Assembly: GCA_965116495.1 (NCBI GenBank) | Contig: OZ220696.1 | Location: 896,001-960,000 of the forward strand | Length of the DNA: 64,000 bases | Direction of reading: 5' to 3' | DNA from: Gammaproteobacteria bacterium | Lineage (GTDB): Bacteria > Pseudomonadota > Gammaproteobacteria > Eutrophobiales > Eutrophobiaceae | In this document: positions 3,329 through 19,800 of the stretch, in pieces | Layout: every line of letters begins with the position of its first letter | Position numbering within the stretch: position 1 is the stretch's first letter | Notes under the pieces: generated by a model | Databases searched by the model: none | Seen by the model: the letters and a program-made list of their open reading frames with translations, nothing else | Told to the model about the DNA's origin: nothing | Translations under genes and position numbers: made by a program

Positions 3329-3947
3329 TTAATTGACAGAGACCCTGGACGTTGGCATGCCTACGTGGTTCATTGTAGTCTGGTTGCCGAGCAAAGGCGG
3401 CGAGTGCATTTCATTAAATTCGGCGTCGGACTGCAATTCCAGCCACACTTCACCAACATAGCGATCAGTTCTGCCGCTGGATGAATATGACGTTGTACAC
3501 ACACCTCCTCCACTGGGGGGGCAGGTGCCCGTCGTGGTGACTGTCTCGTTGTGATGGCAGTCATTGTCGGATGCCGTACAGTCCCACTCCATAGAGATGT
3601 CATACACCGTATTGCTGACCTTCTTGATTTCTTCACCAACTGATCCCAGGCCGTACCTGCGGTCAGTGTGGCCCGGGACCAGGTTGGTCGTCTCGTCTGT
3701 CATAAAGTCATGCCAACTGACTCCGCTCACCGGTTCGGAGAAAGTCACCCGCCACGTCACTTTCTGAGTGCTGCTCCCGCTTGCCGGTGTCGGTACGGGC
3801 GCTGTACAGATGTAAGGCTTATAAGATGTCCGATCCGCTTCAGCCAGAGGGCAGGTAATTTGCGCGCTTGCTTCACCGGCAAGGCCAAACAGGGCTACCC
3901 CCCCCCCAGAAGACGGCAATCGTCAGATATCGTATGATGGTGTTCAT
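3329..3947 (-). CDS. Secreted Cys-containing Ig-like protein, frameshifted in a G10 tract within the signal peptide
   Basis: ATG at 3947 with GGAG RBS gives MNTIIRYLTIAVFW. After the G10 run (3898-3907) another frame continues VALFGLAGEASA/QITCP...VTWRVTFSEPVSGV. G9 or G12 would join them. Confidence 0.65.
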
Positions 3948-4397: not shown

Positions 4398-7300
4398 CTA
4401 CCCATCGTAATAGGGCCCTATTATATCCTCAATGCCAAACCCATCCACGCCGGCATCGTACCCCCCCACACCCCCATCCCCCAAGGTCAATGACAGCGCC
4501 GGGACGGACACGCGACCGGCCACCTGGGCGCTCAACTGGGACGCCGGGGGCGTCGGCCCCGTGCCCTCGAAAATCGCAAACTGGGATTCGTCCAGATCGG
4601 CGAGGTCGGTGTCCAGCAAGGTGATGCTGTCTTCCTTGCCGCTGGGATCCGTGTAAATGACCACGTCGTTGCCAATTTGTTCGGCATGGTTCGCCAGCAT
4701 CTCGTCGAAGTCGGCGAAGCCCACCTGGATGAGGAAGAAGCTGTCGCCCTCGTCCGGGTTGAAATCGGTGATCACGTCGCGGCCGAAATTGCCGTAGATG
4801 GTAAACCTGTCGTCGCCCGCGCCGCCGGTCATGCGATCGTGGCCGAAGCTACCGTTGATATAGTCCCTGCCGCCGCGCCCGTCGATCAAGTCGTTGTCGT
4901 CTGAGCCAACCAGCGAGTCCACCTCGTCGGTGCCGGTCATCGTGAGGCCGTTGTGGCGCCAGGGGGTGGGCGCCGGGTCGGATTCGGGTTCTGGCTCGGG
5001 TTCCGGGTCTGGCTCCGGGTCTGGTTCCGGCTCAGGTTCGGGTTCCGGGTCTGGCTCCGGCTCTGGTTCGGTTGAGGTCTCCTCGGGTTGTTGCTCCTCC
5101 TGTTCCGCTTCGATCTCGGTGAGGGCTTCCACCACCGGGTCCCAACGGCTCGCCGACCATCTGTCCGCCATCTCCTGCGCCTCGGTGGCGGTCATGGGCG
5201 TGTAGCCGTTGTCGTCGCCCAAGGCCGCGAGCACTTTCATCCAGCGGTCGACATGGGCCTGGCCGTTGTGGGTCTCGGCGGCATAACCGCGCACGTCGGC
5301 AATTAACTCGCTGTAGTCGTTCCCTTCATCCGCCTTCTTCCCCTGGCCGTTGTCGGGCGGGGTGAGCTGGTCGTCCAGGGTGGGGGCCGGCTCATCGTTG
5401 TCGGTGATGGTGGCCTCGCCGCTGGCATCGCCCAGGGTGGCGTTGCTGGGGGAGCTCAAGGTGACGGTGAAGGTCTCGTCGGTCTCATCCTCACTGTCAT
5501 CCGTGGTCTGCACCCAGAGGGTCGCGAATTGTGCGCCGGCGCTGATGGTCAGGGTTTGACCGGTCTGGCCGGTGTAGTCGCTGCCATCCGTTGCGGTGCC
5601 GTCGGTGGCAGTCCAGTTGACCGTAACGTCCTTGCCGGAGACCGCATCGAGCGAGACGGTGAACTGGAGCATATCACCTTCGGCCACGGTTACGTCGTCA
5701 ATGGACAATGAGGGCGCGGCGTCGTTGTCGGAGAGGGTGGCCTCCCCGGTGGCTGTGCCTATGGTGGCATTGGTAGGAGCGCTCAATGTAACAGTGAAGG
5801 TTTCATCCGGCTCGTCGATGGCGTCATCGGTGGTCTGCACGGTGATGGTGGCGCTCTGCTGACCCGCGGCGATGGTAAGGGTTTGACCGGCCTGGCCGGT
5901 GTAGTCACTGCCATCCACTGCTATGCTGTCGGACGTGTCCCAGGTAAGGGTGACGTCCTCCGTCCAGGTCTTGTCGAGACTCACAGTGAATTCGACCTCG
6001 TTGCCTTCGGTGACGGATACATCATCGATAGCGGCCACCGGCGGGGTGCTTGCCGCTTGCTGCGCCGCCTGCTCCGCTTCGATCTCGGTGAGGGCTTCCA
6101 CCACCGGGTCCCAACGGCTCGCCGACCATCTGTCCGCCATCTCCTGCGCCTCGGTGGCGGTCATGGGCGTGTAGCCGTTGTCGTCGCCCAAGGCCGCGAG
6201 CACTTTCATCCAGCGGTCGACATGGGCCTGGCCGTTGTGGGTCTCGGCGGCATAACCGCGCACGTCGGCAATCAGCGCGTCGTACCGGCCTGGCGGGGGC
6301 GGGTCATCGTTATCGGTGAGAGTAGCTTCGCCGCTGGCATCGCCCAGGGTGGCGTTGGTGGGGGAACTCAGGGTGATGGTGAAGGTCTCGTCGGTCTCAT
6401 CGTCACTGTCGTCGGCGGTCTGCACCGTGATGGTGGCGCTCTGCTGGCCGGCGGCGATGGTAAGGGTTTGACCGGTCTGGCCGGTGTAGTCACTGCCATC
6501 TGTAGCCGTGCCGTCAGATGTGTCCCAGGTAAGGGTGACGTCCTCGCCCCAGGTCTTGTCCAGACTCACGGTGAACTCGACTCTGCCCCCTTCGGTAACG
6601 CTCACATCGTCAATGGACGCCACCGGCGGAGTGGGCGGCGCTTGTTGTTTCGCCTCCTGTGCCGCCTCTATCTCAGTCAATGCCTCGGCCACCGGGTTCC
6701 AGCGCGGCCAGCCGTAACCGGCATAGTTCCGGGCTTCCTCCGCAGTCATGGGCGTATAGCCGTTGTCATCACCAAACGCCGCCAGTACCTGCATCCAGCG
6801 GTCCACGTGTGCCTGACCCTGGAACGTCTCCGCAGCATAGCCGCGCACCATGCCAATCAACTCGCTGTAGTCCGGGTCGGTTGCCTGCCCCGTGTCCTGG
6901 CTAGTGTCCTCGCTGAAATCTTCCGATGGTGTGATCGAAAAATCGTTCGTACTCAGATCTGACAGTTGCGTGTTCTTCAGGGTGACACGATTGGTCGTGC
7001 CGCTCTCATCCGTATAAATCACCACATCATTGCCGTCCTGCACGGCATGATTGGCCAGCATCCCGGCATAGTCGGCAAAGCCCACCGAGTCCAGGATGAC
7101 TATATCGCCCGCATCCGGGTCGAAGTCCTCCACCACGTCCTGCCCGTCACCGCCGTAAATATCAAACGCATCCGCGCCCGCGCCGCCGCGCAAGGTGTCG
7201 TTGCCCTGGGCGCCGGTCAGGACGTCGCTGTCCGCGCCACCTTCGAGCGTGTCATCGCCCGCACCGCCTTCGAGGAAATCCTTGCCGGGCCCACCCTTGA

Positions 7301-8723
7301 TAATGTCATCGCCGCCGTAGCCAAACAGATCGTCATCCCCGCCATGGCCCTCGATCAGGTCGCCGTCCATGTCGCCTTCCAGCACCTCACCGGCGTCGGT
7401 GCCGGTGACGGTGAGGCCGTTGTGTATGGTGAAGTTGGCTGCATTCAAATCCGACAGCAGTGTGTTCTTCAGGGTGACACTATTGGCCGTACCGCTCTCG
7501 TCCGTATAAATCACCACGTCATTGCCGTCCTGCACGGCATGGTTGGCGAGCATCCCGGCATAGTCGGCAAAACCGACCGAGCCCAGCCTGACCTCATCGC
7601 CGGCATCCGTGTCGAAGTCCTTAACCACGTCCCGCCCATGCCCTCCGTACACCACGAAGGCATCAGCCCCGGGCCCGCCGGTCAGGGTGTCGTTACCCGC
7701 ACCGCCAATGAGCCTGTCGTCCCCAGCGCCACCCATCAGAATGTCGTTGCCTGGCCCTGCGTTCAGGACGTTATCGGCCTCATTGCCCGTCAAACTATCA
7801 TTGCCACTGCCTGACGTGGCATTCTCGATCACCACGCCGTTGGCGATGAGAAAGCCACCAGGGATTTTCCATGCCCAGGAAACGTGGCCACCACCACCGG
7901 GTTCATATTCAAGCGTGGCCGCGCGCAAGTCGATCACGACATTGGCGGCGCCGGTGTACTCGATCACATCGGTCCCGCCGGTATCCCAGATGGTGTGATA
8001 GCCGTTTGCCTCTGCACGGGTGGCGGCCAGTGTATAAACATCATCGCCCCCTGCGTGGGTGGTGTTGGCGCCGTACATGTTTTGCAGGGCGGCAATGTCC
8101 AGCGCGCCGAACGTGGCATTGGCAGAGCCATCGCCGGGATCGTCCCAGCGACCGTCCCACGTATTTACAGTGTCCGCATTCGACGTCACGGTGAATATCG
8201 TCTGGTGCAGCCCGTAGCCGGATTTCATGATCTTGCTGAAGTTGCCTTCATCATCCGGGTGGGCCAGCCCCACTCCATGTCCTACTTCATGGAGGACCAC
8301 AAAGTAAAACCTCCCTCCCTGGTCGAATTGACCGCCGGGTTTATCAGTCCAGTCACCGCTTTTGGTGTTTGCCATGCCTTCCCCGCCGTTGCCGTTCCCA
8401 TCGGGGAAATCAAACTGGCCCCAAGGCATGCCGCGGCCCCCGGGTATACCACCAATGTGAATGCTGTTCTCTGGGGTGCCCTCGAAAACTCCGAACTTGA
8501 GATCGGCAGCATCCTTATCCGTCGTGAGTTGGAAATCAACGTTGATGAAGGTTTCCAGATTCTCGAAGACCGACCAGATCTGGGTTTTTTCATAGTCGGT
8601 CATGGTGCGGGCGTAGTACCAGTAGAAGGCAAGGTCACCTTCCTTGAACAAATACACCAGGACCGGATCCGAGGTATCCAGCTTGTGTTTTCCCTGAACG
8701 GCGTCAACAGGGTTATCGCTCAT
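4398..8723 (-). CDS. Serralysin-like (M10B) metalloprotease with RTX repeats, Calx-beta domains, three novel helical repeats and a Pro/Glu linker
   Basis: HEVGHGVGLAH zinc motif; DIAALQNMYG; TIWDTGGTD; IENATSGSGND; many GGxGxDxL nonapeptides; three Calx-beta units (SIDDVSVTEG...TATDGSDY...ETFTVTLS); no signal peptide. Confidence 0.9.
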   Translation of the reverse strand: MSDNPVDAVQGKHKLDTSDPVLVYLFKEGDLAFYWYYARTMTDYEKTQIWSVFENLETFINVDFQLTTDKDAADLKFGVFEGTPENSIHIGGIPGGRGMPWGQFDFPDGNGNGGEGMANTKSGDWTDKPGGQFDQGGRFYFVVLHEVGHGVGLAHPDDEGNFSKIMKSGYGLHQTIFTVTSNADTVNTWDGRWDDPGDGSANATFGALDIAALQNMYGANTTHAGGDDVYTLAATRAEANGYHTIWDTGGTDVIEYTGAANVVIDLRAATLEYEPGGGGHVSWAWKIPGGFLIANGVVIENATSGSGNDSLTGNEADNVLNAGPGNDILMGGAGDDRLIGGAGNDTLTGGPGADAFVVYGGHGRDVVKDFDTDAGDEVRLGSVGFADYAGMLANHAVQDGNDVVIYTDESGTANSVTLKNTLLSDLNAANFTIHNGLTVTGTDAGEVLEGDMDGDLIEGHGGDDDLFGYGGDDIIKGGPGKDFLEGGAGDDTLEGGADSDVLTGAQGNDTLRGGAGADAFDIYGGDGQDVVEDFDPDAGDIVILDSVGFADYAGMLANHAVQDGNDVVIYTDESGTTNRVTLKNTQLSDLSTNDFSITPSEDFSEDTSQDTGQATDPDYSELIGMVRGYAAETFQGQAHVDRWMQVLAAFGDDNGYTPMTAEEARNYAGYGWPRWNPVAEALTEIEAAQEAKQQAPPTPPVASIDDVSVTEGGRVEFTVSLDKTWGEDVTLTWDTSDGTATDGSDYTGQTGQTLTIAAGQQSATITVQTADDSDDETDETFTITLSSPTNATLGDASGEATLTDNDDPPPPGRYDALIADVRGYAAETHNGQAHVDRWMKVLAALGDDNGYTPMTATEAQEMADRWSASRWDPVVEALTEIEAEQAAQQAASTPPVAAIDDVSVTEGNEVEFTVSLDKTWTEDVTLTWDTSDSIAVDGSDYTGQAGQTLTIAAGQQSATITVQTTDDAIDEPDETFTVTLSAPTNATIGTATGEATLSDNDAAPSLSIDDVTVAEGDMLQFTVSLDAVSGKDVTVNWTATDGTATDGSDYTGQTGQTLTISAGAQFATLWVQTTDDSEDETDETFTVTLSSPSNATLGDASGEATITDNDEPAPTLDDQLTPPDNGQGKKADEGNDYSELIADVRGYAAETHNGQAHVDRWMKVLAALGDDNGYTPMTATEAQEMADRWSASRWDPVVEALTEIEAEQEEQQPEETSTEPEPEPDPEPEPEPEPDPEPDPEPEPEPESDPAPTPWRHNGLTMTGTDEVDSLVGSDDNDLIDGRGGRDYINGSFGHDRMTGGAGDDRFTIYGNFGRDVITDFNPDEGDSFFLIQVGFADFDEMLANHAEQIGNDVVIYTDPSGKEDSITLLDTDLADLDESQFAIFEGTGPTPPASQLSAQVAGRVSVPALSLTLGDGGVGGYDAGVDGFGIEDIIGPYYDG
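4971..5070 (-). repeat. (EP/DP)n low-complexity linker in the RTX protein
   Basis: EPEPEPDPEPEPEPDPEPDPEPEPEPESDP encoded by degenerate 6-bp repeats. Confidence 0.9.
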
Positions 8724-8933: not shown

Positions 8934-9140
8934 ATGAACGAACATGCCCGTATCGTCATCATCGGTGGCGGCATCATGGGGGTTGGGTTGCTGTACCACC
9001 TGGCCGAAGAAGGCTGTACTGACGTTGTGCTCATCGAGAAGGGTGAACTCACTTCAGGTTCGACCTGGCACGCGGCGGGACAATGCCCGAACTTTGTGGG
9101 TAATTACAACCTCGCCAAAATCCATGAATACAGTATCTCC
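8934..9140 (+). pseudogene. GcvT-family FAD oxidoreductase (dimethylglycine/sarcosine dehydrogenase-like), N-terminal fragment
   Basis: IVIIGGGIMG...VVLIEKGELTSGSTWHAAG; only ~69 codons of a normally ~800-aa protein. Confidence 0.8.
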
Positions 9141-9169
9141 GTGCCTGCGCCACCTGCTGTACGAGCAGC

Positions 9170-9480
9170 ACAAACCGCGCAGTGCCGCTTTCTTCGACCG
9201 TGACATCGTCAATAGCCAGGCTCGGATTGGCGTCGGCGAAGATGAAGTCTGCCGCGTCGATCGTGGCGCCTGCCTGCGCGGTCAGGGTGATGCGGGGGGT
9301 CAGGTCCACGCGGCTATCCTGCGTTGCCCCGGAATAATCGAAAGTGTCTGTACCGCCGTCGTCGATCAGCGTGAAGGCGAACAGCCCGCCTGCCTGCATG
9401 TGCCGGGCAAGCTCGTCGAGGAAGCCGCCGGCATTGGCGTTGAAGCCGTAGGTGGTGTCGCCGGTGCGGATGGCATTGAT
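9170..9480 (-). pseudogene. Collapsed relic of a second serralysin/RTX/Calx-beta gene
   Basis: IRTGDTTYGFN...FTLIDDGGTDTFDYSG..VDL (serralysin C-domain) joined to ITL...IDAADFIFA (RTX tail) joined to PSLAIDDVTVEESG (Calx-beta start). Confidence 0.7.
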
Positions 9481-9673
9481 TGTGAAGAGCGCGTATCTTG
9501 ATTTGTTCCACATGCACAAATGTCCCACATTTTGCTCGTATGTATCAAGCACCGTTCCCAACAATGATCAACAGAGGTTTTCTGAAGAAATTCGATTGGC
9601 AGTTACAAAATCCCCTCCTAACACGTTAGAATGGTATCCTCAAACCGTACGTATATTTTTTTGGGAGCACTAC

Positions 9674-9810
9674 ATGAAAGCAGTGGTATTGGAAGAACTC
9701 GGTGGGCCGGATCACCTGGAGATCAAGGAGGTGGATACGCCGGAACCGGGGCCGGGTGAGGTACGGGTAAGACTGAAAAATTCCGCCTTGAACCGGCGCT
9801 ATTACTGGAA
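9674..9810 (+). pseudogene. MDR/zinc-binding dehydrogenase (quinone oxidoreductase-like), N-terminal fragment
   Basis: GGGAG RBS then MKAVVLEELGGPDHLEIKEVDTPEPGPGEVRVRLKNSALNRR, then similarity is lost. Confidence 0.8.
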
Positions 9811-9909
9811 TCATTACGGCAACTGGAACGCAGCGCGGGCCGCTACGCGCTGGTCAGCATGTGTATCGGTATCGGACAGGGGATTGGCGTGGTGATTGAA
9901 CGTATGTAG
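9811..9909 (+). pseudogene. Thiolase C-terminal fragment
   Basis: Manual translation LRQLERSAGRYALVSMCIGIGQGIGVVIERM* contains the thiolase C-terminal active-site signature (MCIGxGQG). Confidence 0.8.
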
Positions 9910-9921
9910 TGGTTGTTCGTT

Positions 9922-11319
9922 ATGAGGCAAAGTCCGATCAGAAACCCTGAGCGAATTTTGCTGCAATATGTCTGGGCCGTAGCCTTCCTGCTGGTCCCGC
10001 TGTCCCTGACCGCGGACACCGTCTCGCTCGACCTGACCCTGGAGCGGGCGATCGATCTTGCGCTGGAGCAGAACCGGCCGCTGCTTAACCGGCGCCTGGA
10101 TCGCGAGGTGCAAAAATTTTCCCTGGAAGTGGTTGAAGACCGTTGGACGCCTCGAGCCACCCTCCGCCCCTTCGTCAGCAAGGACCGGCAGGATCGCGAG
10201 ACGGGAGTCAGCAGCCAGATCAGCATGCGCGTGCCCACCGGCGGTCAGTTTGCCCTGCGCTGGGATGAAAGACTGTCCAGCGAGTTCGAGGATTCCCGCT
10301 CGCAGTCCCTGAGTTTTTCCCAGCCGCTGCTGAAAGGCGCCTGGATTGACATGGAGACTGCCCCGATCAGGCAGGCCCGACTGGGTGAAAGGCTTAACGT
10401 GCTCTCGTTTCGACAGACGGTGGAAGATCTGGTCGTTGCGGTCATCAGCGCATACCGCACGCTCATCGGCGCGGTGCGGCAAGTGGAGATTTCCGAGACC
10501 GCATTGCAGCGCGCGCGTGAGCAGTTGCAGGCAACCCGCGCCCTGATACGCGCCGGGCGCATGGCAGAGCGGGAGGCCGTGCGCGCCGAGGTGACCATCG
10601 CCACTCGAGAGTTGGCGTTGACCCAGGCGCGCAACCGCCTGGACGCCTCAAACTTCCGTTTGCTTGATATCCTCGAGCTGGGCAGTACGGTGCGTATCCA
10701 TCCGTTGGAAAGATTGAACGTTGAACCGAATCGAGCCACCTTCGAGGCAGTATTCGCCGAAGCGTTGCGCAAGCGCGCCGATTACCTTCAATCCGGGGCG
10801 CTGATCGACATTGCCCGCATCAACCTGGCGGTTGCCAAAAACAACCGGCTGCCGGACCTGTCCCTGGGGGTTGAGTTAAGCGATAACGACCCGGGACGCA
10901 AGGACGCGCAGGTTCGGCTGGACATTTCCATCCCTTTCAATGACCGTTTTCGCGACGTGGACCGTCTCAGGGCGCGCAACGACCTGCGCAAAGCCGAGAG
11001 AGCCCAGCTTGAGCTGCGCGAGTCGATCGACGTGTCCGTACGTCAGGCTGTCAACGACGTCAAGGTAGGGCATCGGTTGACGGAACTGGCCCGCGACGCG
11101 CGCCTGCTGGCAGAACAGAACCTGGACATTGAACGCGAGAAATTCGGTTATGGTCTGTCATCATCCTTCGAGGTATCGTCGTCCGAGGACGAACTCGTGC
11201 AGGCGGAGCAGGCCGAGGTGGATGCGATCCTCAGCTATCTCGACGTGCTGACGCGGCTTGACTATATCTCGGGCCGCACCCTGGACAGTTGGGGCATTCA
11301 AGTGGAAACTCTCCCGTAA
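9922..11319 (+). CDS. TolC-family outer membrane efflux protein
   Basis: Signal peptide; LTLERAIDLALEQN; two OEP-like halves (LPDLSL, DISIPF); first gene of a four-gene exporter operon. Confidence 0.85.
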   Translation: MRQSPIRNPERILLQYVWAVAFLLVPLSLTADTVSLDLTLERAIDLALEQNRPLLNRRLDREVQKFSLEVVEDRWTPRATLRPFVSKDRQDRETGVSSQISMRVPTGGQFALRWDERLSSEFEDSRSQSLSFSQPLLKGAWIDMETAPIRQARLGERLNVLSFRQTVEDLVVAVISAYRTLIGAVRQVEISETALQRAREQLQATRALIRAGRMAEREAVRAEVTIATRELALTQARNRLDASNFRLLDILELGSTVRIHPLERLNVEPNRATFEAVFAEALRKRADYLQSGALIDIARINLAVAKNNRLPDLSLGVELSDNDPGRKDAQVRLDISIPFNDRFRDVDRLRARNDLRKAERAQLELRESIDVSVRQAVNDVKVGHRLTELARDARLLAEQNLDIEREKFGYGLSSSFEVSSSEDELVQAEQAEVDAILSYLDVLTRLDYISGRTLDSWGIQVETLP

Positions 11320-13112
11320 TGGCAAACGACCCTCAAGACATTTACCGGACTTTGCTGGAGAACCTGTCCGACGGTGTGATGGCAGTTGACGTTGATGGGG
11401 CCGTGCGCCTCACCAACCCTGCCTTTTGCCAAATCTTCGGACTCGAGTCCGAGGCGGTAACCGGTCGCCCCTTTGCAGAAATATTTGTGGCATTTGAGGG
11501 CTTTGACGAGTTCGTCGAGATTATCCTGGACGCCATTACCGAGCAGGGCGAGATCAAGCGCCGCGTCGCGAGTGTGCATATCGGTGACGCAGTCCGCTCG
11601 TTGTCCGTCACGACCTCGTACCTGCTGGCATCCGGGCCAAAACAGACCGGGCAGGTAGCAATGATTGCCGTGGTTTCCGACATCTCCGAGATCAAGGAAC
11701 TGCGCGAGACCGAACTGCGCATGGCGAAAGTCGTCGAGAATCAGCTCAGTGAGCTGCAGAACGCCTATCGGGATATTGAGTCCCGCAACGAGACGCTGTC
11801 CGTGATGATGAAGAAGGTCCAGGCAACGCGTGGTGTCGCAGCGTTATTGGTGGCCGGACTGTTTCTCGCCATTGGTGGTTGGTACATTCAGCCGCTGGAT
11901 ATCATCAATTCCGACCCGGCGCCGGCGCTGTTGGCGGATGGCCAGGCCGCCGACCAGGCCACTGACCCGGAGACCTTGCAGACCATAACTCTTGCACCCC
12001 GGGAGTTCCGCTCGACCCTCGCGGTGCGCGGCAACCTGACACCGGGACACGTCGTGAAAGTCGTCAGCTCGGTCGATAGCCATGTGAGTGGGGTCCACGT
12101 TGCCCATGGCGAGAGAGTGGACGCAGGCGACGCGCTGCTCGAGCTTGAGCCCGGTCAGCTACTGATGGATTACCGTCGGATCCAGATCGAGTATATCCAG
12201 GCGCGCGACAAGCTGCTCGAGCTTGAAGACTGGGAAAGCAGCGACGAAATGGCGGGTGCCCGGCGCCTGTTGCGACGGGCAAAAATAGCGCTCGAAGATT
12301 CTGAGCTGAGGCTCCGGCGCACTGCTTTTCTGCTGGAAAAGGGGATAGTCCCTACCTCCGAGCACGAATCTGCGCAGCAACAACACCAGGAGCGCAAGCT
12401 GGATTTTGAACAAGCCGAGCGGGATTTGGAATCGACCAGAGAAAAAGGAGATGCTGAGGCAAGACGGGTCGCGCGCCTACAAGTGGAGAATGCGCAAAGC
12501 CAGGTTGAACAGCACGAGCAGAAACTGAATCAACTTGAGCTCGAGGCCCCGATTGCAGGGATCGTTGTTGCCGATGCAGGCATTGCGAATAAGCCCCTGG
12601 CCAAAGGCCGTCCGGTGGCCCAGGGTGAGCTGCTGCTGAGCATTGCCGATTTCGAGCAGATTTCGGTAGCCTCCAGTGTCGATGAGGTGGATGTCAGGAA
12701 GATCGAACCCGGCCAGCGCGCCTTGGTTACCGGCCCCGGGTTTCCGGGCCTGGAAATCGGCGGAACCGTTACCCGGATCTCGTCGCGCGTACTTGGCGGC
12801 AGGAGGCAGCGGGGCGCGCCTGAGTTCGATATCGTGATTGCCCTGGACAGGTTGGATGCGGCCGCGCGTGAACAGTTACGGGTCGGCATGTCGGCCTACG
12901 TCACGATCATCGTACACAGCGATCCGGAGGCGTTGCTGATTCCGATCGACGCGGTGCAGGAGTCCGGCGCTGAAACCTGGGTGCGTGTGCTCGACCGGAA
13001 CACTGCCGCGGTGGAGCAACGCGCGGTCAGACTGGGCTTCACGACACTGGATTCGGTCGAAGTGATAGCAGGACTCGCGGTCGGGGAAGAAATCGTCCTC
13101 CCGGAAAGATGA
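11319..13112 (+). CDS. PAS-domain-fused periplasmic adaptor (MacA/HlyD-like membrane fusion protein)
   Basis: TAATG coupling to tolC; YRTLLENLSDGVMAVDVDG...NPAFCQIFG...GRP...DISE (PAS), coiled coil, one TM helix, then lipoyl/hairpin/barrel MFP (V.HGERV.AG, LEAPIAG, VDEVD, LRVGMSA). Confidence 0.85.
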   Translation: MANDPQDIYRTLLENLSDGVMAVDVDGAVRLTNPAFCQIFGLESEAVTGRPFAEIFVAFEGFDEFVEIILDAITEQGEIKRRVASVHIGDAVRSLSVTTSYLLASGPKQTGQVAMIAVVSDISEIKELRETELRMAKVVENQLSELQNAYRDIESRNETLSVMMKKVQATRGVAALLVAGLFLAIGGWYIQPLDIINSDPAPALLADGQAADQATDPETLQTITLAPREFRSTLAVRGNLTPGHVVKVVSSVDSHVSGVHVAHGERVDAGDALLELEPGQLLMDYRRIQIEYIQARDKLLELEDWESSDEMAGARRLLRRAKIALEDSELRLRRTAFLLEKGIVPTSEHESAQQQHQERKLDFEQAERDLESTREKGDAEARRVARLQVENAQSQVEQHEQKLNQLELEAPIAGIVVADAGIANKPLAKGRPVAQGELLLSIADFEQISVASSVDEVDVRKIEPGQRALVTGPGFPGLEIGGTVTRISSRVLGGRRQRGAPEFDIVIALDRLDAAAREQLRVGMSAYVTIIVHSDPEALLIPIDAVQESGAETWVRVLDRNTAAVEQRAVRLGFTTLDSVEVIAGLAVGEEIVLPER

Positions 13113-13143
13113 ACGGCAACCCCTGCTATTGCCAGCCACCGTC

Positions 13144-13899
13144 ATGAACGCGCCAGATAAAATGTTGCGCCTGGTTGACGTGCGCAAATCCTACCGCATC
13201 GGGCCGGCTACCAGGGAGATCCTGCAAGGCATCCACCTGGAAGTCAACACTGGTGACCTGCTATCGATCATGGGGCCCTCGGGTAGCGGCAAGACTACGT
13301 TGATGAACATCATTGGCCTGCTCGACCGTCCCGGCGCCGGCGACTGTTACCTCAATGGGCGCGCGATCTCCGGGTTGACGGATGACGAGCTGTCCTCGCT
13401 GCGTAACGAGCATATCGGGTTTGTGTTCCAGTCCTTCCAGTTGTTGCCGCAGTTGACGGCCATCGAAAACGTTTGCCTACCGCTGGTGTACCGGGGTATG
13501 GGGCAGGCGGAGATGAGGCAGCGGGCGCAGACCCTGCTGGCGCGCGTGGGCATGGATGACTGGGCGGGGCATCGGCCCGACCAGCTCTCCGGCGGACAGA
13601 AGCAGCGAGTTGCCATTGCCCGGGCACTGGCGGGAGAGCCGGCGCTGTTGCTCGCGGATGAACCCACCGGCGCCCTGGATAGCGACACCGCGACCGAGGT
13701 CATGACCCTGCTCCTGGAATTGAACTCGGAGCAGGGGGTGACGATCCTGATCATCACCCATGACCCACTGGTGGCGCGGCAATGCACGCGCCAACTGCGC
13801 ATCAATAACGGCTTGTTACAGGAGAAGGGAATGTCTGCCCGGGGGGTTGCCGCCACGCGGCAACCGCTTGCAGGCGCCCAGGCAGGGTATGCGGGTTAG
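13144..13899 (+). CDS. ABC transporter ATPase (MacB/LolD family)
   Basis: GPSGSGKT, IGFVFQSFQLL, LSGGQKQRVAIARAL, LLADEPTGALD. Confidence 0.95.
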   Translation: MNAPDKMLRLVDVRKSYRIGPATREILQGIHLEVNTGDLLSIMGPSGSGKTTLMNIIGLLDRPGAGDCYLNGRAISGLTDDELSSLRNEHIGFVFQSFQLLPQLTAIENVCLPLVYRGMGQAEMRQRAQTLLARVGMDDWAGHRPDQLSGGQKQRVAIARALAGEPALLLADEPTGALDSDTATEVMTLLLELNSEQGVTILIITHDPLVARQCTRQLRINNGLLQEKGMSARGVAATRQPLAGAQAGYAG

Positions 13900-15106
13900 A
13901 TCTCTTGCAATCCTGCAGGCAAATGCCCGCGAGGCGGTTAACAGCCTGCGCAAGGCAAGGCTGCGCACACTGCTGGGGCTGCTTGGCATCATGATCGGTA
14001 TCTCATCGGTTATTACAATGGTCTCGTTGGGCGAAATAGCCAGAGAGCAGGCGCGCAAAGAATTCGAAGCTATCGGCACCGACATCCTGATCATTCGCAA
14101 GTCGTACGAGACCTCGACCCCAGAGCAGGAGGCGGCGGAAATTGACCTGGCGGATGCCGTAGCATTGGCGCCGGCGCTTCCTTCAATTGCCGAGGCTGCG
14201 CCCAGGATCGCGAGCTATGGGGAATTCCGTTACGCCGGCAAGACAGTCGGCGAGGGAACCATCCAGGGCGTCACCGCGTCGTACTTCAGTGTGAACCGTT
14301 TGTCCATGGCATCCGGCCGGTTTATCTCGAACCTGGATGCCAACCGCCACTACTGTGTCGTTGGCGCCGGCATTGCCGAGGCAATGCGCCAGGTCGGGGT
14401 ACAACAGCTTGTGGGACAGATCCTGGAGATTGACGAGGAACTCTTCACGGTCCTGGGCACATTAAATGACAAACAGGAGAGTTACACCTTGCCCATCCGG
14501 GTGGAGGCAAATAATTCTGTCTTCATACCAATCACGACCGCGCAGCGCCTCGACTCCAACCCGGAGATCGACGTGATCGTTGCCAGGTCAAGCGCCGGCG
14601 TCCATTACGAGCAGGCGGTGCAAGACGTTCATTCATTCATGCGGAACAGGTCGCGGGATCTCCTCCTGGACATCATCACCGCCAAGGAATGGATAGCCCG
14701 GATGGAAGCGCAAATGCGCATCATGACCCTGCTGCTGGCCGCAGTGGGCAGCATCTCCCTCATCGTCGGCGGAATCGGGATCATGAATATCATGCTGGTG
14801 TCCGTAGCGGAACGCCGCCGCGAGATCGCGATCCGGCGTGCGCTGGGCGCGCGCCGGGGGGACATTCAAAGCCAGTTCCTCATTGAATCCATTATCCTGA
14901 CGGTAGCGGGGGGAGCGCTTGGCGTTGTGCTCGGCTTGCTGGTGACCTGGGTAGCCTGCCAGTTCACCGAATGGGAGTTCCTCATCTCAGGCATATCCGT
15001 GGTAAGCGGTATCGGTACCGCCTCCGCAGTCGGCCTGTTCTTCGGCTTCCAGCCCGCTCGTCAAGCCTCCCGCCTGGACCCGATCACCGCGCTTCAGGGA
15101 AGCTGA
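13889..15106 (+). CDS. ABC transporter permease (MacB/FtsX family)
   Basis: LRTLLGLLGIMIG; GGIGIMNIMLVSVAERRREIAIRRALGA; PARQASRLDPITAL. Confidence 0.95.
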   Translation: MRVRSLAILQANAREAVNSLRKARLRTLLGLLGIMIGISSVITMVSLGEIAREQARKEFEAIGTDILIIRKSYETSTPEQEAAEIDLADAVALAPALPSIAEAAPRIASYGEFRYAGKTVGEGTIQGVTASYFSVNRLSMASGRFISNLDANRHYCVVGAGIAEAMRQVGVQQLVGQILEIDEELFTVLGTLNDKQESYTLPIRVEANNSVFIPITTAQRLDSNPEIDVIVARSSAGVHYEQAVQDVHSFMRNRSRDLLLDIITAKEWIARMEAQMRIMTLLLAAVGSISLIVGGIGIMNIMLVSVAERRREIAIRRALGARRGDIQSQFLIESIILTVAGGALGVVLGLLVTWVACQFTEWEFLISGISVVSGIGTASAVGLFFGFQPARQASRLDPITALQGS

Positions 15107-15240
15107 ACGGGTGTCAAAAACAACGGCCATGGTCTGAGGGCAGGTCGCGGTGCAAGCGCACCACTGCTGCGCAAGCAGGAGTCTCCATCAAGAGTTGTGA
15201 TCAACATCCCCAAGAGAGATCCCCAGGAGAGAGAACACTG

Positions 15241-15440
15241 CAGGGCTATCTCAAAGTCGGTATACGCCCCGCTGTCATTCCGGGCTTGGTCCGGAATCCA
15301 ATGAAAACGTAATGTTTTATAAACAATGAATGATTGTTTGACTGGATTCCTGCCCCTGCTCAACGCCATACAGGGACAGGCTTGTGCAGGAATGACGGGT
15401 GGGAGATTTGAAAGCCGGTAATGACTTTAAGATGACCCTG
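15241..15440. mobile_element. MITE-like element with 18-bp imperfect terminal inverted repeats enclosing a REP doublet
   Basis: CAGGGCTATCTCAAAGTC ... GACTTTAAGATGACCCTG (15/18 inverted); internal GTCATTCC..GGAATCC / GGATTCC..GGAATGACG at 15274-15397. Confidence 0.6.
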
Positions 15441-15458
15441 TGTTCCTAACAAAGTGCA

Positions 15459-15487
15459 TTGACAAGTGTATGATTTCACGGTATAAT
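15459..15487 (+). promoter_or_regulatory. Perfect consensus sigma70 promoter
   Basis: TTGACA (15459-15464)-17 bp-TATAAT (15482-15487), upstream of the small Calx-beta gene. Confidence 0.85.
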
Positions 15488-15540: not shown

Positions 15541-16092
15541 ATGACCGCTACCTCACAAGCTGTTTTTTCACACCTTCAACCTGGGCGGGATTGCCGCTAC
15601 AAGGGTTTGCGCGCATTGCCGAGAAGCGCCGCCTGCGCTGTCGCACTGGCGCTTGGAATGGCGCTGACAGCCCCGGCCACGTTAGCGTGGGATGCATCAA
15701 CCACGGAGGGTCAAGAGCTGGTAATGCAATTGGAGATACCCTATGGGAGCGAAGGAGAGTCCTATCGCTGGTCATGGAAGACGGAAGATGATACGGCCAC
15801 GAGCGGGGCCGACTATACATCAAAATCAGGCACGGTGACATTCACCTGGGATGACGATAAGCAATACATTAAAGTCAAGACACTGCTGGATTGTGACATG
15901 AATGAAACTGCCGAATACTTTAATCTGAACTTTTCCAATTTCCAGGTCAATAACAGTCGGACTAATGGCTGGGCATCGCCGAGTTGGTCGTTCAGCGACC
16001 CGAATTGGGGAAGCACCTTCACGAGACAGGCACGGATCAAGAATCGATATAGCATGACCAATAAGCAGAAAGAACAAGCAGGCTGTTCTTAA
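15541..16092 (+). CDS. Small exported Calx-beta-domain protein
   Basis: GGGAG RBS before ATG 15541; hydrophobic segment AVALALGMALTAPATLA; TEDDTATSGADYTSKSGTVTF...E.F.L. Confidence 0.75.
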   Translation: MTATSQAVFSHLQPGRDCRYKGLRALPRSAACAVALALGMALTAPATLAWDASTTEGQELVMQLEIPYGSEGESYRWSWKTEDDTATSGADYTSKSGTVTFTWDDDKQYIKVKTLLDCDMNETAEYFNLNFSNFQVNNSRTNGWASPSWSFSDPNWGSTFTRQARIKNRYSMTNKQKEQAGCS

Positions 16093-16151: not shown

Positions 16152-16194
16152 CAGGACCGGGGACAGAACAGGTCTGTCCCCGGTCCTGGTTTTT
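16152..16194 (+). terminator. 16-bp perfect hairpin followed by T-run
   Basis: CAGGACCGGGGACAGA-acagg-TCTGTCCCCGGTCCTG-gttttt downstream of the Calx-beta gene. Confidence 0.7.
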
Positions 16195-16826: not shown

Positions 16827-19800
16827 GTGCTACGAGAGGGTAGGGCGCGGTGTTCAATTTTGAAGATCATTTCGGCAAGAAAAACTAATGAGTGGCGCGC
16901 CGGCGTGTTTTGCTTGTTGGCGTTGCTGCTTGCGGGTGGTTGGTCAACCGCGGTCCAGGCCCAGAACAGTGCATACCTGACGCTTGACCTGGTTCAGATA
17001 CGGGCCAATGCGCTGCACGGCGCCACGATCAAAATCACTCCGAAAAACGCCACTTTCCTCGGTGCCGGCGGGGGCGCCGGCTTCGATCTCGAGGACTTTG
17101 TGCATTCGGATGATTGGGATTCCGAAAGCGGCCAGCTCACCGCTGCCGCCATAGCCGGCGAAATCAGGCTGAACGCCACGGGTCTTTCCAGAATCACATT
17201 GCAGGGCGCGCCTGCGGGGCTGAGCATCGCGCGCGCGAAGCTGCTGGCGCGCGAGCAACCCCACTCGCACGGCAGGGCCAGCAAAGGCCATCGCTCCGCG
17301 CAGATCACCCTGGCCTACACCGGCTCCGGCATCAATGCCGACGTTGCGGTCACGGTGGCTGTGCAGGGCGGCGCCGATGGCCTGCTTTCGTATGGCAATC
17401 AACACGCGGGCTACCCGGGCGCATCCTGCTGCACTGCCGGCTTCACCATCAGGACCGGGACCCTCACCGACGGCGTCAGCGTGAATCCGGCCTCCCTGGC
17501 CGTCACCGAACGCGGTGGCGCCAGCGCCGAGGCCGGCTACAAGGTGGGGCTGCTGACGGACCCGGGCGCCGATGTCACCATCACGGCCACGGTGCCGGCG
17601 GCCAATACCTCCGATGTTGAGGTCAAGGCGGGCAGCGGCTCATTCGGCAGCGCCGCGACCCTGACCTTCACCCACGGGAGCGGCGGCAACTGGACCCAGG
17701 CGCAAACGGTGACGGTGCGGGCGAAGAACGACAGCGACACCGCCGACGAATCGTTCAACATCACTCATTCGCTGAGCGTGGCGAGCGGGCCCTACCGAAC
17801 CATAACGCCGGCCTCGGTCGCGCTGGCCGTCACCGATGCCGGCGCCGGCGTACCGCTGTCCTTCAGCGCCGCGGCTTACCGCGCGAACGAGCCTGCGTCC
17901 ACCACCAACGCGGCGCTGGGCCTCACGCTGTCGAGCACGCGCCCCTCGGCCACGACGGTGACCGTCGAGAGGACGGGCGGCAGCGCCACGGCGGACGACG
18001 ACTATACGGCCGGCCCCTGGACCGCGACCATCGCCGCGAACACCATCACCGGCACGGTCAACATTCCCATCCGTCACGACACGACGGACGAGCCCAACGA
18101 GACCGTCGAGCTCAGCATCCGGGCGAGCAGCCTGCCGACAGGGGTGGTACCGGGCAGCCAGGGAACGGCGACGCTCACAATCACCGACAACGACGCAACC
18201 AGCGTGACGCTGGCGGGTTCCGGCACGGTGAAGGAGGACGGCAGCGATGCGGCGGACGTGGCGGTCACGCTGGGCCGCAAGCTGGCGGGCGGCGAGTCGG
18301 TGACCGCACCGCTGGTCATCGCGGGCACCGGCATCACCCGCAAGGACTACGATATCGGATTGAAAACCGGCGGCAACTACAACCGGGGGGTGTCGCTCAA
18401 TAGCGCCAGCCCCTACAGCCGCTGGAGCCCCGCGGTGGTGTTCACAGGCTCCGACGTGAATACGGTGCGGGTGGCGACGCTTGCAGTGACCGGGAAGGAG
18501 GACACCCGCGACGAGGGCGCTTCGGAGACGCTGACCGTAAACTTCGGCAGCGGCGACCAGGCGGTCAGCAGCAACCTCGACCGCCCCTCGGGTACCGGCG
18601 CCGCCGGCACCACCGCCTCGGGCTCGGCGAGCGTGGCGATCACCGACAACGACCAACCGCCGTCCCTTGTGGTCAGCCCGCGCATCATCAGCGCCCGCAA
18701 CCTTCAAGACGGCGGCACGGCCACGCTCACGCTGACACCGAAGAATTCGACCTTTTTCGGCGCGGGCGGCGGTGGCGGCCACAGTGGCAGCAATCCATCC
18801 GCACCCTATGTGTTTTTCGACGACCGCAACGACCGGGGCGAAATCCCCAACACCGAGGTTCGCCTCAGCGCGACCGGCTTGTCGAAAATCAGCTTGTCGG
18901 GCACGTCGGCACCTCTGACCATCAGCGCCGGCCGGCTGCTCCCGATCCAGTACGACGTGCACGGCGCGGAACAGCACCGGTCCGTGGAGATCGACCTGAG
19001 CTACGCCGGCCCGCCGATCACAGCGGACGACCAGGTGACAGTCACGGTGGACAGCGACCTGCTGCGATTCGGAGATCAGAGCGGCGGCAGCCCCGCCAGC
19101 CAGTCCGCCCGTTTCACGATCAAGCCACTCGACCCCAATGCCGGTCTGACTATCAGGGAAACCGGCAGCCCCGCCGAGACCGTCGTTGGCGAAAACGGCG
19201 GAGCGGACCGCTACGACGTGGTGCTGAGGACCCGACCGACGCATCCTGTCACCGTGACGGTAACGGCGGGCGCCGGAACGCTGGTGGATGGGCCCGACGC
19301 GGGCAACGCGGGCGCGTCTACCGAAACCCTCACATTCAACCCCACCGGGAGCGCTCTCTGGAGCACGCCACAGACCATCACCGTGACCGGCGTCGATGAC
19401 GACATCGACAACGCCGGCAACGCCCGCACCGTGATGATCGATCACGCGGCCAGCTCGAACGACCACAACTACGCCGTCAACGACGCCGGCAGCCTGAGCG
19501 TGAAGGTGACTGACGATGACCGCGCCGGGGTGACTGTCTCTCACGCCGCGCACACGCTGGCCGAGAACGGCGGCGTCGCCACCTACACCCTGAAGCTCGA
19601 CTCGCAGCCGCTCAAGGCGGTGACGATCACTGTGGACGCCGGCGACGGCAGCGTCGTGAAGGTGGATGGACCGGACAGCGCGACCGACTTCACCAACGCG
19701 GAAGCCCTCACCTTTACGCCCTCGAACTGGAATTCGGCGCAACAAATCAGCATCGAGGGCCAGAACGACAATGCCGTGACCTACCTGCCGCGCAGGGCGA

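Follow-up and report, generated by a model that had tools for sequence, protein, structure and literature searches.

The question raised by this locus is why the periplasmic adaptor of an export pump should begin with a PAS domain, and what a pump of this kind would export. The stretch of DNA analysed here, referred to below as the window, consists of 64,000 nucleotides of contig OZ220696.1 (positions 896,001 to 960,000, forward strand) of the gammaproteobacterial assembly GCA_965116495.1, and the gene in question occupies 11319..13112 on its plus strand. It encodes a protein of 597 residues in which a PAS domain, a coiled coil and a membrane helix precede a MacA-type periplasmic adaptor, as indicated by Pfam, NCBIfam, a structural model and fold and sequence searches, and it sits inside an operon specifying, in this order, a TolC channel, the adaptor, an ATPase and a MacB-type permease. 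The PAS-adaptor pump is real, widespread and uncharacterised, and it is a variant of a known pump type. What is observed is the order of the domains, the cassette of four genes, how well it is conserved and which genes surround it; from this we infer a cargo, a mode of gating and an input; the resulting reading, viz. that the pump secretes small proteins folded in the periplasm and that the cytoplasmic PAS domain tunes it, is one to which we would give an even chance.

The open reading frame (ORF) of the adaptor starts with an ATG at 11319, its stop codon ends at 13112, and it is free of internal stops. The cytoplasmic PAS domain (11337..11681, plus strand like all parts of this gene; residues 7-121) is recognised above cut-off by the Pfam models PAS, PAS_8 and PAS_4 (E 9.5e-10, 9.2e-9 and 1.3e-7, respectively), and TIGR00229 matches residues 7-130 (E 1.8e-15). 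In an AlphaFold2 model built from 92 sequences (mean pLDDT 81.3, pTM 0.46) a complete PAS fold at residues 5-121 is followed by an uninterrupted helix (123-186) and, after a linker, by a complete adaptor. The coiled coil (11682..11828; residues 122-170) is continuous with the membrane helix (11832..11888; residues 172-190), and as the eight best 19-residue hydropathy windows all start at residues 167-175, with the top one at 172, the protein has one such helix. A variable periplasmic linker (11889..11981; residues 191-221), in which pLDDT is below 50 at residues 188-216, leads to the adaptor body (11982..13109), comprising beta-barrel, lipoyl, long helical hairpin and membrane-proximal domains; this part exceeds the TIGR01730 cut-off (110.6 vs 94.9 bits), and its closest solved structures, by fold as well as by sequence search, are MacA chains. 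A preliminary description of this gene, made from the sequence alone, was correct as to the single membrane helix and also as to the lack of a kinase or cyclase output, neither catalytic domain being found in the adaptor by Pfam and NCBIfam scans. Its other boundaries are in need of some adjustment: the PAS domain given as about 125 residues has a core of about 115; the 40-residue stretch quoted for a coiled coil of about 45 residues corresponds exactly to residues 121-160, but the soluble coil extends to about residue 170 (about 50 residues); and the membrane-fusion protein (MFP) that was said to follow the membrane helix is complete (TIGR01730, with MacA as the best match), but the low-confidence linker at about 191-221 intervenes.

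The other three genes of the cassette identify the class of the pump. The first gene of the operon encodes a TolC-family outer-membrane channel (9922..11319, plus strand; Pfam OEP, E 1.2e-35; open frame from 9913), and its stop codon overlaps the ATG of the adaptor. The adaptor is followed by a MacB/LolD-type ATP-binding cassette (ABC) ATPase (13144..13899, plus strand), which is matched by Pfam ABC_tran and best among the NCBIfam models by the ATPase part of MacB (E 1.1e-73; LolD model, E 9.5e-71), and whose Walker A, signature and Walker B motifs are invariant among 60 relatives. The last gene encodes a MacB-type permease (13889..15106, plus strand; MacB_PCD E 2.3e-34, FtsX E 5.2e-20; open frame from 13760), whose start at 13889 is deduced from its overlap with the end of the ATPase gene, and whose best solved relative among PDB chains is E. 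coli MacB (E 5.9e-48). With a permease having a MacB core and an FtsX-like C-terminus, an ATPase of the MacB/LolD clade, adaptor domains with an N-terminal membrane helix and a TolC channel, the cassette is, judged by its parts, a member of the MacAB-TolC-type tripartite ABC exporters, for which export from the periplasm is predicted. It falls short of the strict equivalog models for MacA (48.1 vs 342 bits) and for MacB (248.7 and 204.3 vs 966 bits, in two genes), and also of the type I (HlyBD-TolC) adaptor model TIGR01843 (36 vs 208.65 bits), the permease being of the MacB type. The genome encodes a separate HlyD above cut-off, which adjoins a TolC and lies away from the cassette. An AatD acyltransferase was found neither in the cassette of the window nor in the recurrent neighbour clusters, to which this search was confined.

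The fusion is not peculiar to the assembly in which it was noticed. A search with the whole protein gave 191 matches among 7,992 candidates, and the 120 homologues listed all have a PAS family and align over 98-100% of the query, with identities of 50-100%. A second search, for which the PAS part of a divergent relative was used, yielded 142 matches among 867 candidates, and the 120 listed from it are further proteins, which align along the adaptor as well. The PAS-adaptor fusion is thus carried by at least 240 related proteins, and the option entertained in the preliminary description that it might be unique to this assembly is excluded by the coverage of the listed homologues. An assembly or deletion artefact is ruled out by these full-length homologues together with an independent contig, since a single contig from another study's run spans 9812-15113 with a 3-base in-frame gap as the sole difference in continuity. 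The adaptor gene is single-copy in the 4.34-Mb genome, where neither tblastn nor profile searches found a second copy of it or of the cassette.

For comparative work, 73 loci came from a GTDB set, in which 80 of 128 confirmed matches were kept, all titled as metagenome-assembled genomes; they derive from Gamma- and Alphaproteobacteria, Candidatus Binatia, Thermodesulfobacteriota, Acidobacteria and Gemmatimonadetes. The names Porisulfidus and Poriferihabitaceae occurring among them presumably point to sponge symbionts. A metagenome set contributed 80 further loci, 37 with the adaptor fusion and 43 with the PAS domain in other proteins, and the fusion cassette is also found in 7 of 401 genomes (Desulfobacterota) of a Thermodesulfobacteriota sample. 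Within the family of the window's genome 10 of the 25 genomes carry the cassette, and none of 16 genomes sampled from other families of the class does. The TolC-adaptor-ATPase-permease order is kept in 96 of the 120 loci examined by tblastn; of the remainder, 3 are rearranged, 17 are without at least one partner within reach (many of them at contig ends) and 4 are cut inside the gene. Because the pairwise distances of the five cassette parts correlate at 0.84-0.95 in 81 complete loci, and because the identity between cassettes from different phyla reaches 93.5% (L007/L058) and 88.4% (L008/L038), the cassette travels as a unit. These comparisons indicate that it moves between phyla, largely among apparent sponge symbionts, with the reservation that the near-identical pairs L013/L014 and L060/L061 lie on short contigs and may be binning errors. 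Two cassettes are present in L098, L018/L019 and G041, and in L026 (5714-7900) the remnant of a second, divergent cassette, consisting of a TolC gene and a broken PAS/coiled coil, stands directly before the main one. In a single case (P0433) a chain of 1064 residues unites PAS domain, adaptor and MacB permease, which could be a read-through artefact.

The cytoplasmic part of the protein is under constraint. When dN/dS is calculated over 27 disjoint close pairs, the PAS domain and the adaptor body both have a value of 0.23, the coiled coil and the membrane helix have lower values (0.12 and 0.15, respectively), and the periplasmic linker has a higher one (0.52); by this measure purifying selection on the PAS domain is as strong as that on the adaptor, and the coiled coil is the most conserved region of the protein. 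Changes in the length of the coiled coil in 240 proteins are limited to deletions of 7, 4 or 3 residues: the spacing from D121 to L146 is 25 residues in 237 of the 240 and 18 in the other 3, and that from E154 to G186 is 32 residues in 204 of 235 proteins, 28 in 30 and 29 in 1. Since deletions of these sizes correspond approximately to whole helical turns, they are expected for a helix whose phase matters. F182 and G186 of the membrane helix are conserved in 96-98% of the 240 proteins, the rigid helical path ends at the outer face of the membrane, and across the periplasmic linker the spacing from G186 to G238 varies freely between 39 and 60 residues. According to the accessible part of PMC5985334, which cites Tikhonova 2007, removal of the cytoplasmic region or of the membrane helix of MacA impairs the stimulation of the MacB ATPase and abolishes resistance; as both are needed for this stimulation, the PAS domain sits on a known lever.

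The same PAS subfamily also heads proteins of other kinds. The 38 translated metagenome loci with the PAS domain but no adaptor comprise 31 cyclase-type (class III) proteins, 4 with HD-GYP, 1 with GGDEF, 1 with 2-oxoglutarate dehydrogenase E1 and 1 stand-alone protein ending after a short helix, one example of each enzyme label being confirmed by Pfam or NCBIfam and the others being read from motifs. A single full match is shown by 76 of the best 150 representatives at 50% identity, and these include 46 adaptor fusions as well as cyclases, GGDEF and HD-GYP proteins and two SpoIIE phosphatases; remoter relatives are mostly PAS-histidine kinases. In the enzyme relatives the PAS domain is the input module, because it is N-terminal and nothing lies upstream of it. 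A helix motif around D63, F65, L70, D71 and A72 is conserved at 96-100% among 52 sequences drawn from adaptors and enzymes. For the model of a relative's PAS domain the best fold match is the cytoplasmic PAS domain of CitA (Z 14.2, rmsd 1.6, 102 residues aligned); fold searches otherwise return generic PAS domains without a clue to a ligand, and a search of the ESM Atlas with residues 1-192 gave generic PAS clusters only. In a quick, unrooted tree of 132 columns, in which the order of fusion origins is not shown, the PAS domains group by fusion label and non-adaptor PAS needs 2 changes; one long-branch row (the second match in L010) is probably spurious.

Some members of this subfamily deserve mention in their own right. 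In L119 (5607-6623) the PAS domain precedes 2-oxoglutarate dehydrogenase E1 (E 3.9e-62) in a gene that runs off the contig, a single case with a STAS gene and a glutaminase/ankyrin/RsbW-like fusion as neighbours. The PAS-cyclases of L122, L124-L126 and L130-L156 bear a C-terminal domain without family assignment, and loci of the PAS-cyclase type have cyclic-nucleotide-binding neighbours in 24 of 43 cases and STAS or SpoIIE neighbours in 15 of 43, a possible cyclic-nucleotide and partner-switch module. P0307, P0308 and P0448 are stand-alone proteins made up of the PAS domain, the coiled coil and a short conserved acidic tail, without an output domain.

The suggestion in the preliminary description that a cytoplasmic signal gates the pump accordingly gains comparative support from the conservation of the PAS domain and coil, the helical phase, the position of the PAS domain as sole N-terminal input of enzymes and the MacA lever, while the signal, the ligand and the gating itself stay putative. 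Its further suggestion that the PAS domain may recruit cargo is unlikely, because MacB-type permeases load their cargo from the periplasm (PMC5985334, accessible part) and the candidate cargo has predicted signal peptides. Overall, a regulatory role for the PAS domain appears likely to us.

As to what is exported, the genes around the cassette offer candidates. Downstream of the permease gene in the window lies a gene for a small single-domain Calx-beta protein (15541..16092, plus strand; Pfam Calx-beta, E 1.2e-9), for which a signal peptide is predicted and whose mature part contains two cysteines. It is preceded by a promoter-like site that agrees with the sigma-70 consensus at 12 of 12 positions (15459..15487, plus strand; a pattern match only) and followed by a terminator-like hairpin of 16 pairs with a T run (16152..16188, plus strand). 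A weaker candidate is a small six-cysteine protein (3329..3919, minus strand) with a signal-peptide-like start and no Pfam family, relatives of which adjoin the cassette in L013, L048 and L070. Clustering of neighbours reveals recurrent small proteins with signal-peptide-like starts, including single Calx-beta domains, an 18-cysteine family of three repeats and others, and in the window's genome 7 ORFs match the profiles of these two families, 4 of them within 10 kb of the cassette and 2 of these small. Within 3 kb of the cassette (547,144 bases) there are 158 small ORFs predicted to carry a signal peptide, or 2.89 per 10 kb; at distances above 4.5 kb in the same loci (541,668 bases) there are 52, or 0.96 per 10 kb, the density in the window's own genome being 0.75 per 10 kb. 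Of the 158, 125 have at least two cysteines. At least one such ORF is found in 72 of the 98 loci with a flank of at least 3 kb, as compared to 36% of random 6-kb windows. Loci that are not of the sponge type carry unrelated exported families, with arrays in L097, L108 and L112 and Lcl-domain and pentapeptide proteins elsewhere, and in L075 two exported paralogues lie between the adaptor and ATPase genes, i.e. inside the operon. In the window's family, stand-alone small Calx-beta ORFs are present in all 8 genomes with a main-clade cassette and, save for one match at a contig end, in none of the 14 fully listed genomes without the cassette (G010 was left out of this scoring), and the cysteine-repeat family is found in 2 of 25 genomes, both of them cassette carriers. 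MacB pumps export the Sec-dependent proteins STII and dispersin, of which STII needs periplasmic disulfide formation, as described in the accessible parts of PMC5985334, PMC8277102 and PMC7943197; by analogy, the candidate cargo points to a two-step secretion (Sec, then the pump) as for STII or dispersin. That the pump exports protein cargo is, in our judgement, quite probable.

Two of these neighbouring families can be described in more detail. In L194 (13179-15912) seven tandem genes for cysteine-rich exported paralogues of 116-130 residues lie on the pump's strand and lead into the pump genes; the three scanned have no Pfam family, and a similar-looking gene stands ahead of TolC in L082. 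The 18-cysteine family, with three six-cysteine repeats and no Pfam match of note, is seen in L004 (13804-14649), in 15 other loci and at G000:C1:1880773-1881375, and is at times fused to Calx-beta.

A possible source of the input is suggested by a second group of neighbours, viz. the STAS, RsbW-like and SpoIIE components of partner switches. Such genes occur in 10 of the 37 metagenome cassette loci (8 of the 19 of at least 10 kb) in 15 of the 43 loci with the PAS domain in other proteins (9 of the 16 of at least 10 kb) and in 3 of 7 Desulfobacterota cassette regions. They are no more than 2.3 kb from the start of the PAS domain in L085, L086, L091-L095, L117, L193 and L195, and because five genomes with such adjacency hold just 1-4 STAS genes each, the adjacency is far above chance. 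The phosphorylatable serine motif is retained in the neighbouring STAS proteins, which also pass TIGR00377. The window's genome has a trio of this kind about 135 kb from the cassette (G000:C1:768907-772922, L161), consisting of a Cache-SpoIIE phosphatase, an RsbW-like kinase and a STAS protein; it could be a partner acting in trans, and scanning of its neighbours revealed no sigma factor. A connection of the PAS pump with a partner switch is nevertheless doubtful, for reasons that are given below. In 10 loci, always beside the cassette, an N-terminal helical domain of about 90 residues without a Pfam match is common to sigma-54 activators and HD-GYP proteins (e.g. L085:11071-12354, L194:15982-17211, L197:3719-5047 and L091:5505-6422); it is not found in the window's genome.

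Based on these results, the pump could work as follows. Candidate cargo of about 10-27 kDa would be translocated across the inner membrane by Sec, or in a few cases perhaps by Tat, and would acquire its disulfides, after which the MacB-type permease and ATPase would drive it from the periplasm through the adaptor and TolC. The PAS domains would pair via the coiled coil, an input would shift the helix register, and this shift would alter how the membrane helix of the adaptor packs against the permease; MacA stimulates the MacB ATPase through its cytoplasmic region and membrane helix (PMC5985334, accessible part), and direct transmission to the adaptor body is unlikely because the periplasmic linker is floppy. 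The input may be common to PAS-headed cyclases, phosphodiesterases and phosphatases, and in many members that are not of the sponge type it may be tied to the STAS/RsbW switch, in that a STAS protein docks on the PAS domain or both read one signal.

A number of observations weigh against this reading. With regard to the cargo, the Calx-beta and cysteine-repeat profiles that match 50 and 16 of the 73 related loci, respectively, were built from these loci and are circular to this extent; the small exported ORFs were called by our own signal-peptide heuristic, and related genomes are not independent; 26 of the 98 flanked loci, including the closest relative L001, have no such ORF within 3 kb; neither of 2 genomes with a divergent cassette has a small Calx-beta ORF; and candidate cargo of 25-27 kDa exceeds the size of about 10 kDa given for MacB pumps in the accessible part of PMC8277102. 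With regard to the helix, the adaptor hairpin is likewise of fixed length (227 of 240 proteins), as long helices in general resist insertions and deletions, and since this structural hairpin is equally fixed, the constant length of the coil fits signalling without proving it. In the PAS domain no cofactor-binding residue is conserved in the 240 proteins, neither a heme histidine nor a LOV cysteine, and C37, present in 92% of the window's clade, is kept in 47% of them. As for the partner switch, genes for it occur in just 2 of the 73 loci of the window's clade, the window itself being without any; 4 of the 7 Desulfobacterota cassette regions and all 5 regions of distant PAS-kinases lack them; L085, L086, L091-L095 and L193 look like one lineage, after merging of which about seven separate placements are left; and as all 23 genomes of the window's genus have STAS genes, with the cassette or without it, co-occurrence of the two is uninformative there.

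Some of these same observations would be accounted for if the pump secretes small proteins while the PAS domain and coil act only as a scaffold that pairs the adaptor subunits, lends stability to the hexamer or positions the pump, no signal being involved. The missing cofactor residue, the CitA-like and otherwise generic fold matches, the retention of the PAS domain in a clade with almost no linked partner-switch genes and the fixed length of a purely structural hairpin are all in keeping with a scaffold, but ordinary MacA functions without such a domain (PMC5985334, accessible part), the same PAS domain is the sole input domain of many enzymes, and pumps and cyclases have in common an acidic helix motif (D63, D71 and neighbours) that is specific to the subfamily; we therefore regard a mere scaffold as unlikely. 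A small-molecule or drug pump whose PAS domain senses its own substrate, with the small exported genes being only island neighbours, is less likely still. MacAB-TolC confers macrolide resistance too (PMC5985334, accessible part), many loci are surrounded by mobile or unrelated genes, and the loci lacking a small exported neighbour would agree with efflux; against it are the threefold enrichment of small exported ORFs near the cassette in the same loci, the recurrence of unrelated small exported families across lineages, in tandem arrays and inside the operon, and the lack of a recurrent biosynthetic family among the neighbour clusters.

The direction of the signal could also be reversed, such that the state of the pump moves the helix and the PAS domain reports to a partner switch or to a sigma-54 activator controlling cargo genes. 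L085, L086, L091, L095, L100, L193, L194 and L197 have sigma-54 activators with the common helical domain in the vicinity of the cassette, and STAS/RsbW genes head the operon in several loci. However, in the cyclase, GGDEF, HD-GYP and SpoIIE relatives the N-terminal PAS domain, with nothing upstream, must be an input, and the helical domain of the activators was found neither in the window's genome nor in the 73 loci of its clade, which makes this reversal rather improbable. Least probable is a one-step route in which the PAS domain catches a cytoplasmic cargo for type I secretion, e.g. the RTX metalloprotease. A serralysin-like RTX protein of 1441 residues is indeed encoded 1.2 kb upstream on the opposite strand (window 4398-8723; RTX and Calx-beta repeats and a Pro-Glu run), and the cytoplasmic parts of type I adaptors help in substrate recognition (PMC8277102, accessible part), but a MacB-type permease has no path across the inner membrane (PMC5985334, accessible part), the adaptor fails the type I HlyD model as noted above, and the cluster of the RTX protein is present in only 3 of 74 loci. 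The protease is better assigned to the separate type I system of the genome, with its above-cut-off HlyD next to a TolC.

The reading in which the pump secretes small periplasm-folded proteins under control of its PAS domain can be extended, as a tentative proposal, to a mobile four-gene, two-step system for small disulfide-bonded proteins, in which a phospho-controlled STAS protein, or the signal it shares, would act on a dedicated PAS subfamily and would bring cyclases, phosphodiesterases, phosphatases, a TCA-cycle enzyme and the pump into one partner-switch circuit, and which sponge symbionts of several phyla would have exchanged, exporting Calx-beta and cysteine-repeat proteins at the interface with their hosts. 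The known regulation of tripartite pumps is mainly transcriptional, and an adaptor with its own sensor on the ATPase-stimulating helix would be a direct switch at the protein level; it would also provide a handle on how the cytoplasmic region and membrane helix of MacA activate MacB. The link to cargo suggests a general export route for folded, disulfide-rich small periplasmic proteins, which may be of use in biotechnology, and it provides candidates for host-facing proteins in uncultured symbionts. The cyclase members of the PAS subfamily have a simple read-out, which makes the subfamily readily testable.

Several other features lie close to the cassette. Directly ahead of TolC (window 8934-9900) there are short remnants, which we take to resemble the start of an FAD-dependent oxidoreductase and that of a zinc-type dehydrogenase, and within this stretch 9049-9564 is a fragment of a gene resembling the serralysin-like metalloprotease; intact dehydrogenase-like genes occur near the cassette in L001, L027 and L028. 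Between the permease gene and the small Calx-beta gene, the depth in DNA runs at 15225-15441 is far above that of the flanks and an imperfect inverted repeat is visible, so that this is probably a multi-copy element. Further downstream (window 16827-26573) a protein of 3248 residues with Calx-beta repeats is encoded, whose C-terminal region has no Pfam or NCBIfam match and resembles an autotransporter barrel.

With regard to known systems, the statement in the preliminary description that no characterised example exists holds for the PAS-adaptor fusion itself, which did not turn up in the literature searched, a search outside which most subscription papers and all supplements fall. Listings of the literature on sponge symbionts and partner switches likewise gave nothing on a PAS-adaptor pump; the term PAS domain is not mentioned in the accessible part of PMC8277102, nor PAS in PMC4446572. 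A fusion of another kind between a sensor-type domain and a membrane-fusion protein is in print, however, viz. the GAF-HlyD proteins of SecA_DEAD loci (Kamneva et al. 2015, PMC4452313, accessible part), for which a regulatory role was proposed from sequence alone; these have GAF and not PAS, and their loci are described there as having SecA_DEAD and peptidase M50 but no ABC transporter. The PAS/coiled-coil inputs of histidine kinases and class III cyclases (CitA, NtrB, FixL, LOV-kinase chimeras) are similar in their PAS fold, a motif of the D-I-T type and a long helix, whereas the helix of the cassette protein ends in the membrane anchor of a pump adaptor and not in an enzyme, and the LOV cysteine or heme histidine is not conserved. 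As in RsbU/RsbV/RsbW-type partner switches (STAS-only proteins; PMC8256260, accessible part), the neighbouring STAS proteins keep the serine motif and are accompanied by RsbW-like kinases and SpoIIE phosphatases, but no sigma factor was recognised beside the STAS genes in the annotated loci, and in the window such STAS genes do not adjoin the cassette.

The closest likeness is to two protein-exporting pumps. MacAB-TolC of E. coli (PDB 5NIK, 9QGY) shares the adaptor fold, the N-terminal membrane helix, the MacB-type permease and ATPase and TolC, and it exports the Sec-dependent, disulfide-bonded STII from the periplasm (PMC5985334, accessible part). In comparison with it, the cassette adaptor, about 20% identical to MacA, has in addition the 170-residue cytoplasmic PAS domain and coiled coil, and in the cassette the ATPase and the permease are encoded by separate genes, the operon includes a TolC of its own, and the small exported neighbours change. 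The Aat system (AatPABCD; dispersin, CexE), as described in the accessible part of PMC7943197, consists of TolC, an adaptor, a separate ATPase and a MacB-like permease, and carries out two-step secretion of small Sec-exported proteins whose genes lie nearby; it differs in that the candidate cargo examined here is without a conserved N-terminal glycine and that no PAS domain is mentioned for AatB in that part of the source. By analogy with both, the cassette would work most like MacAB-TolC with STII or like Aat.

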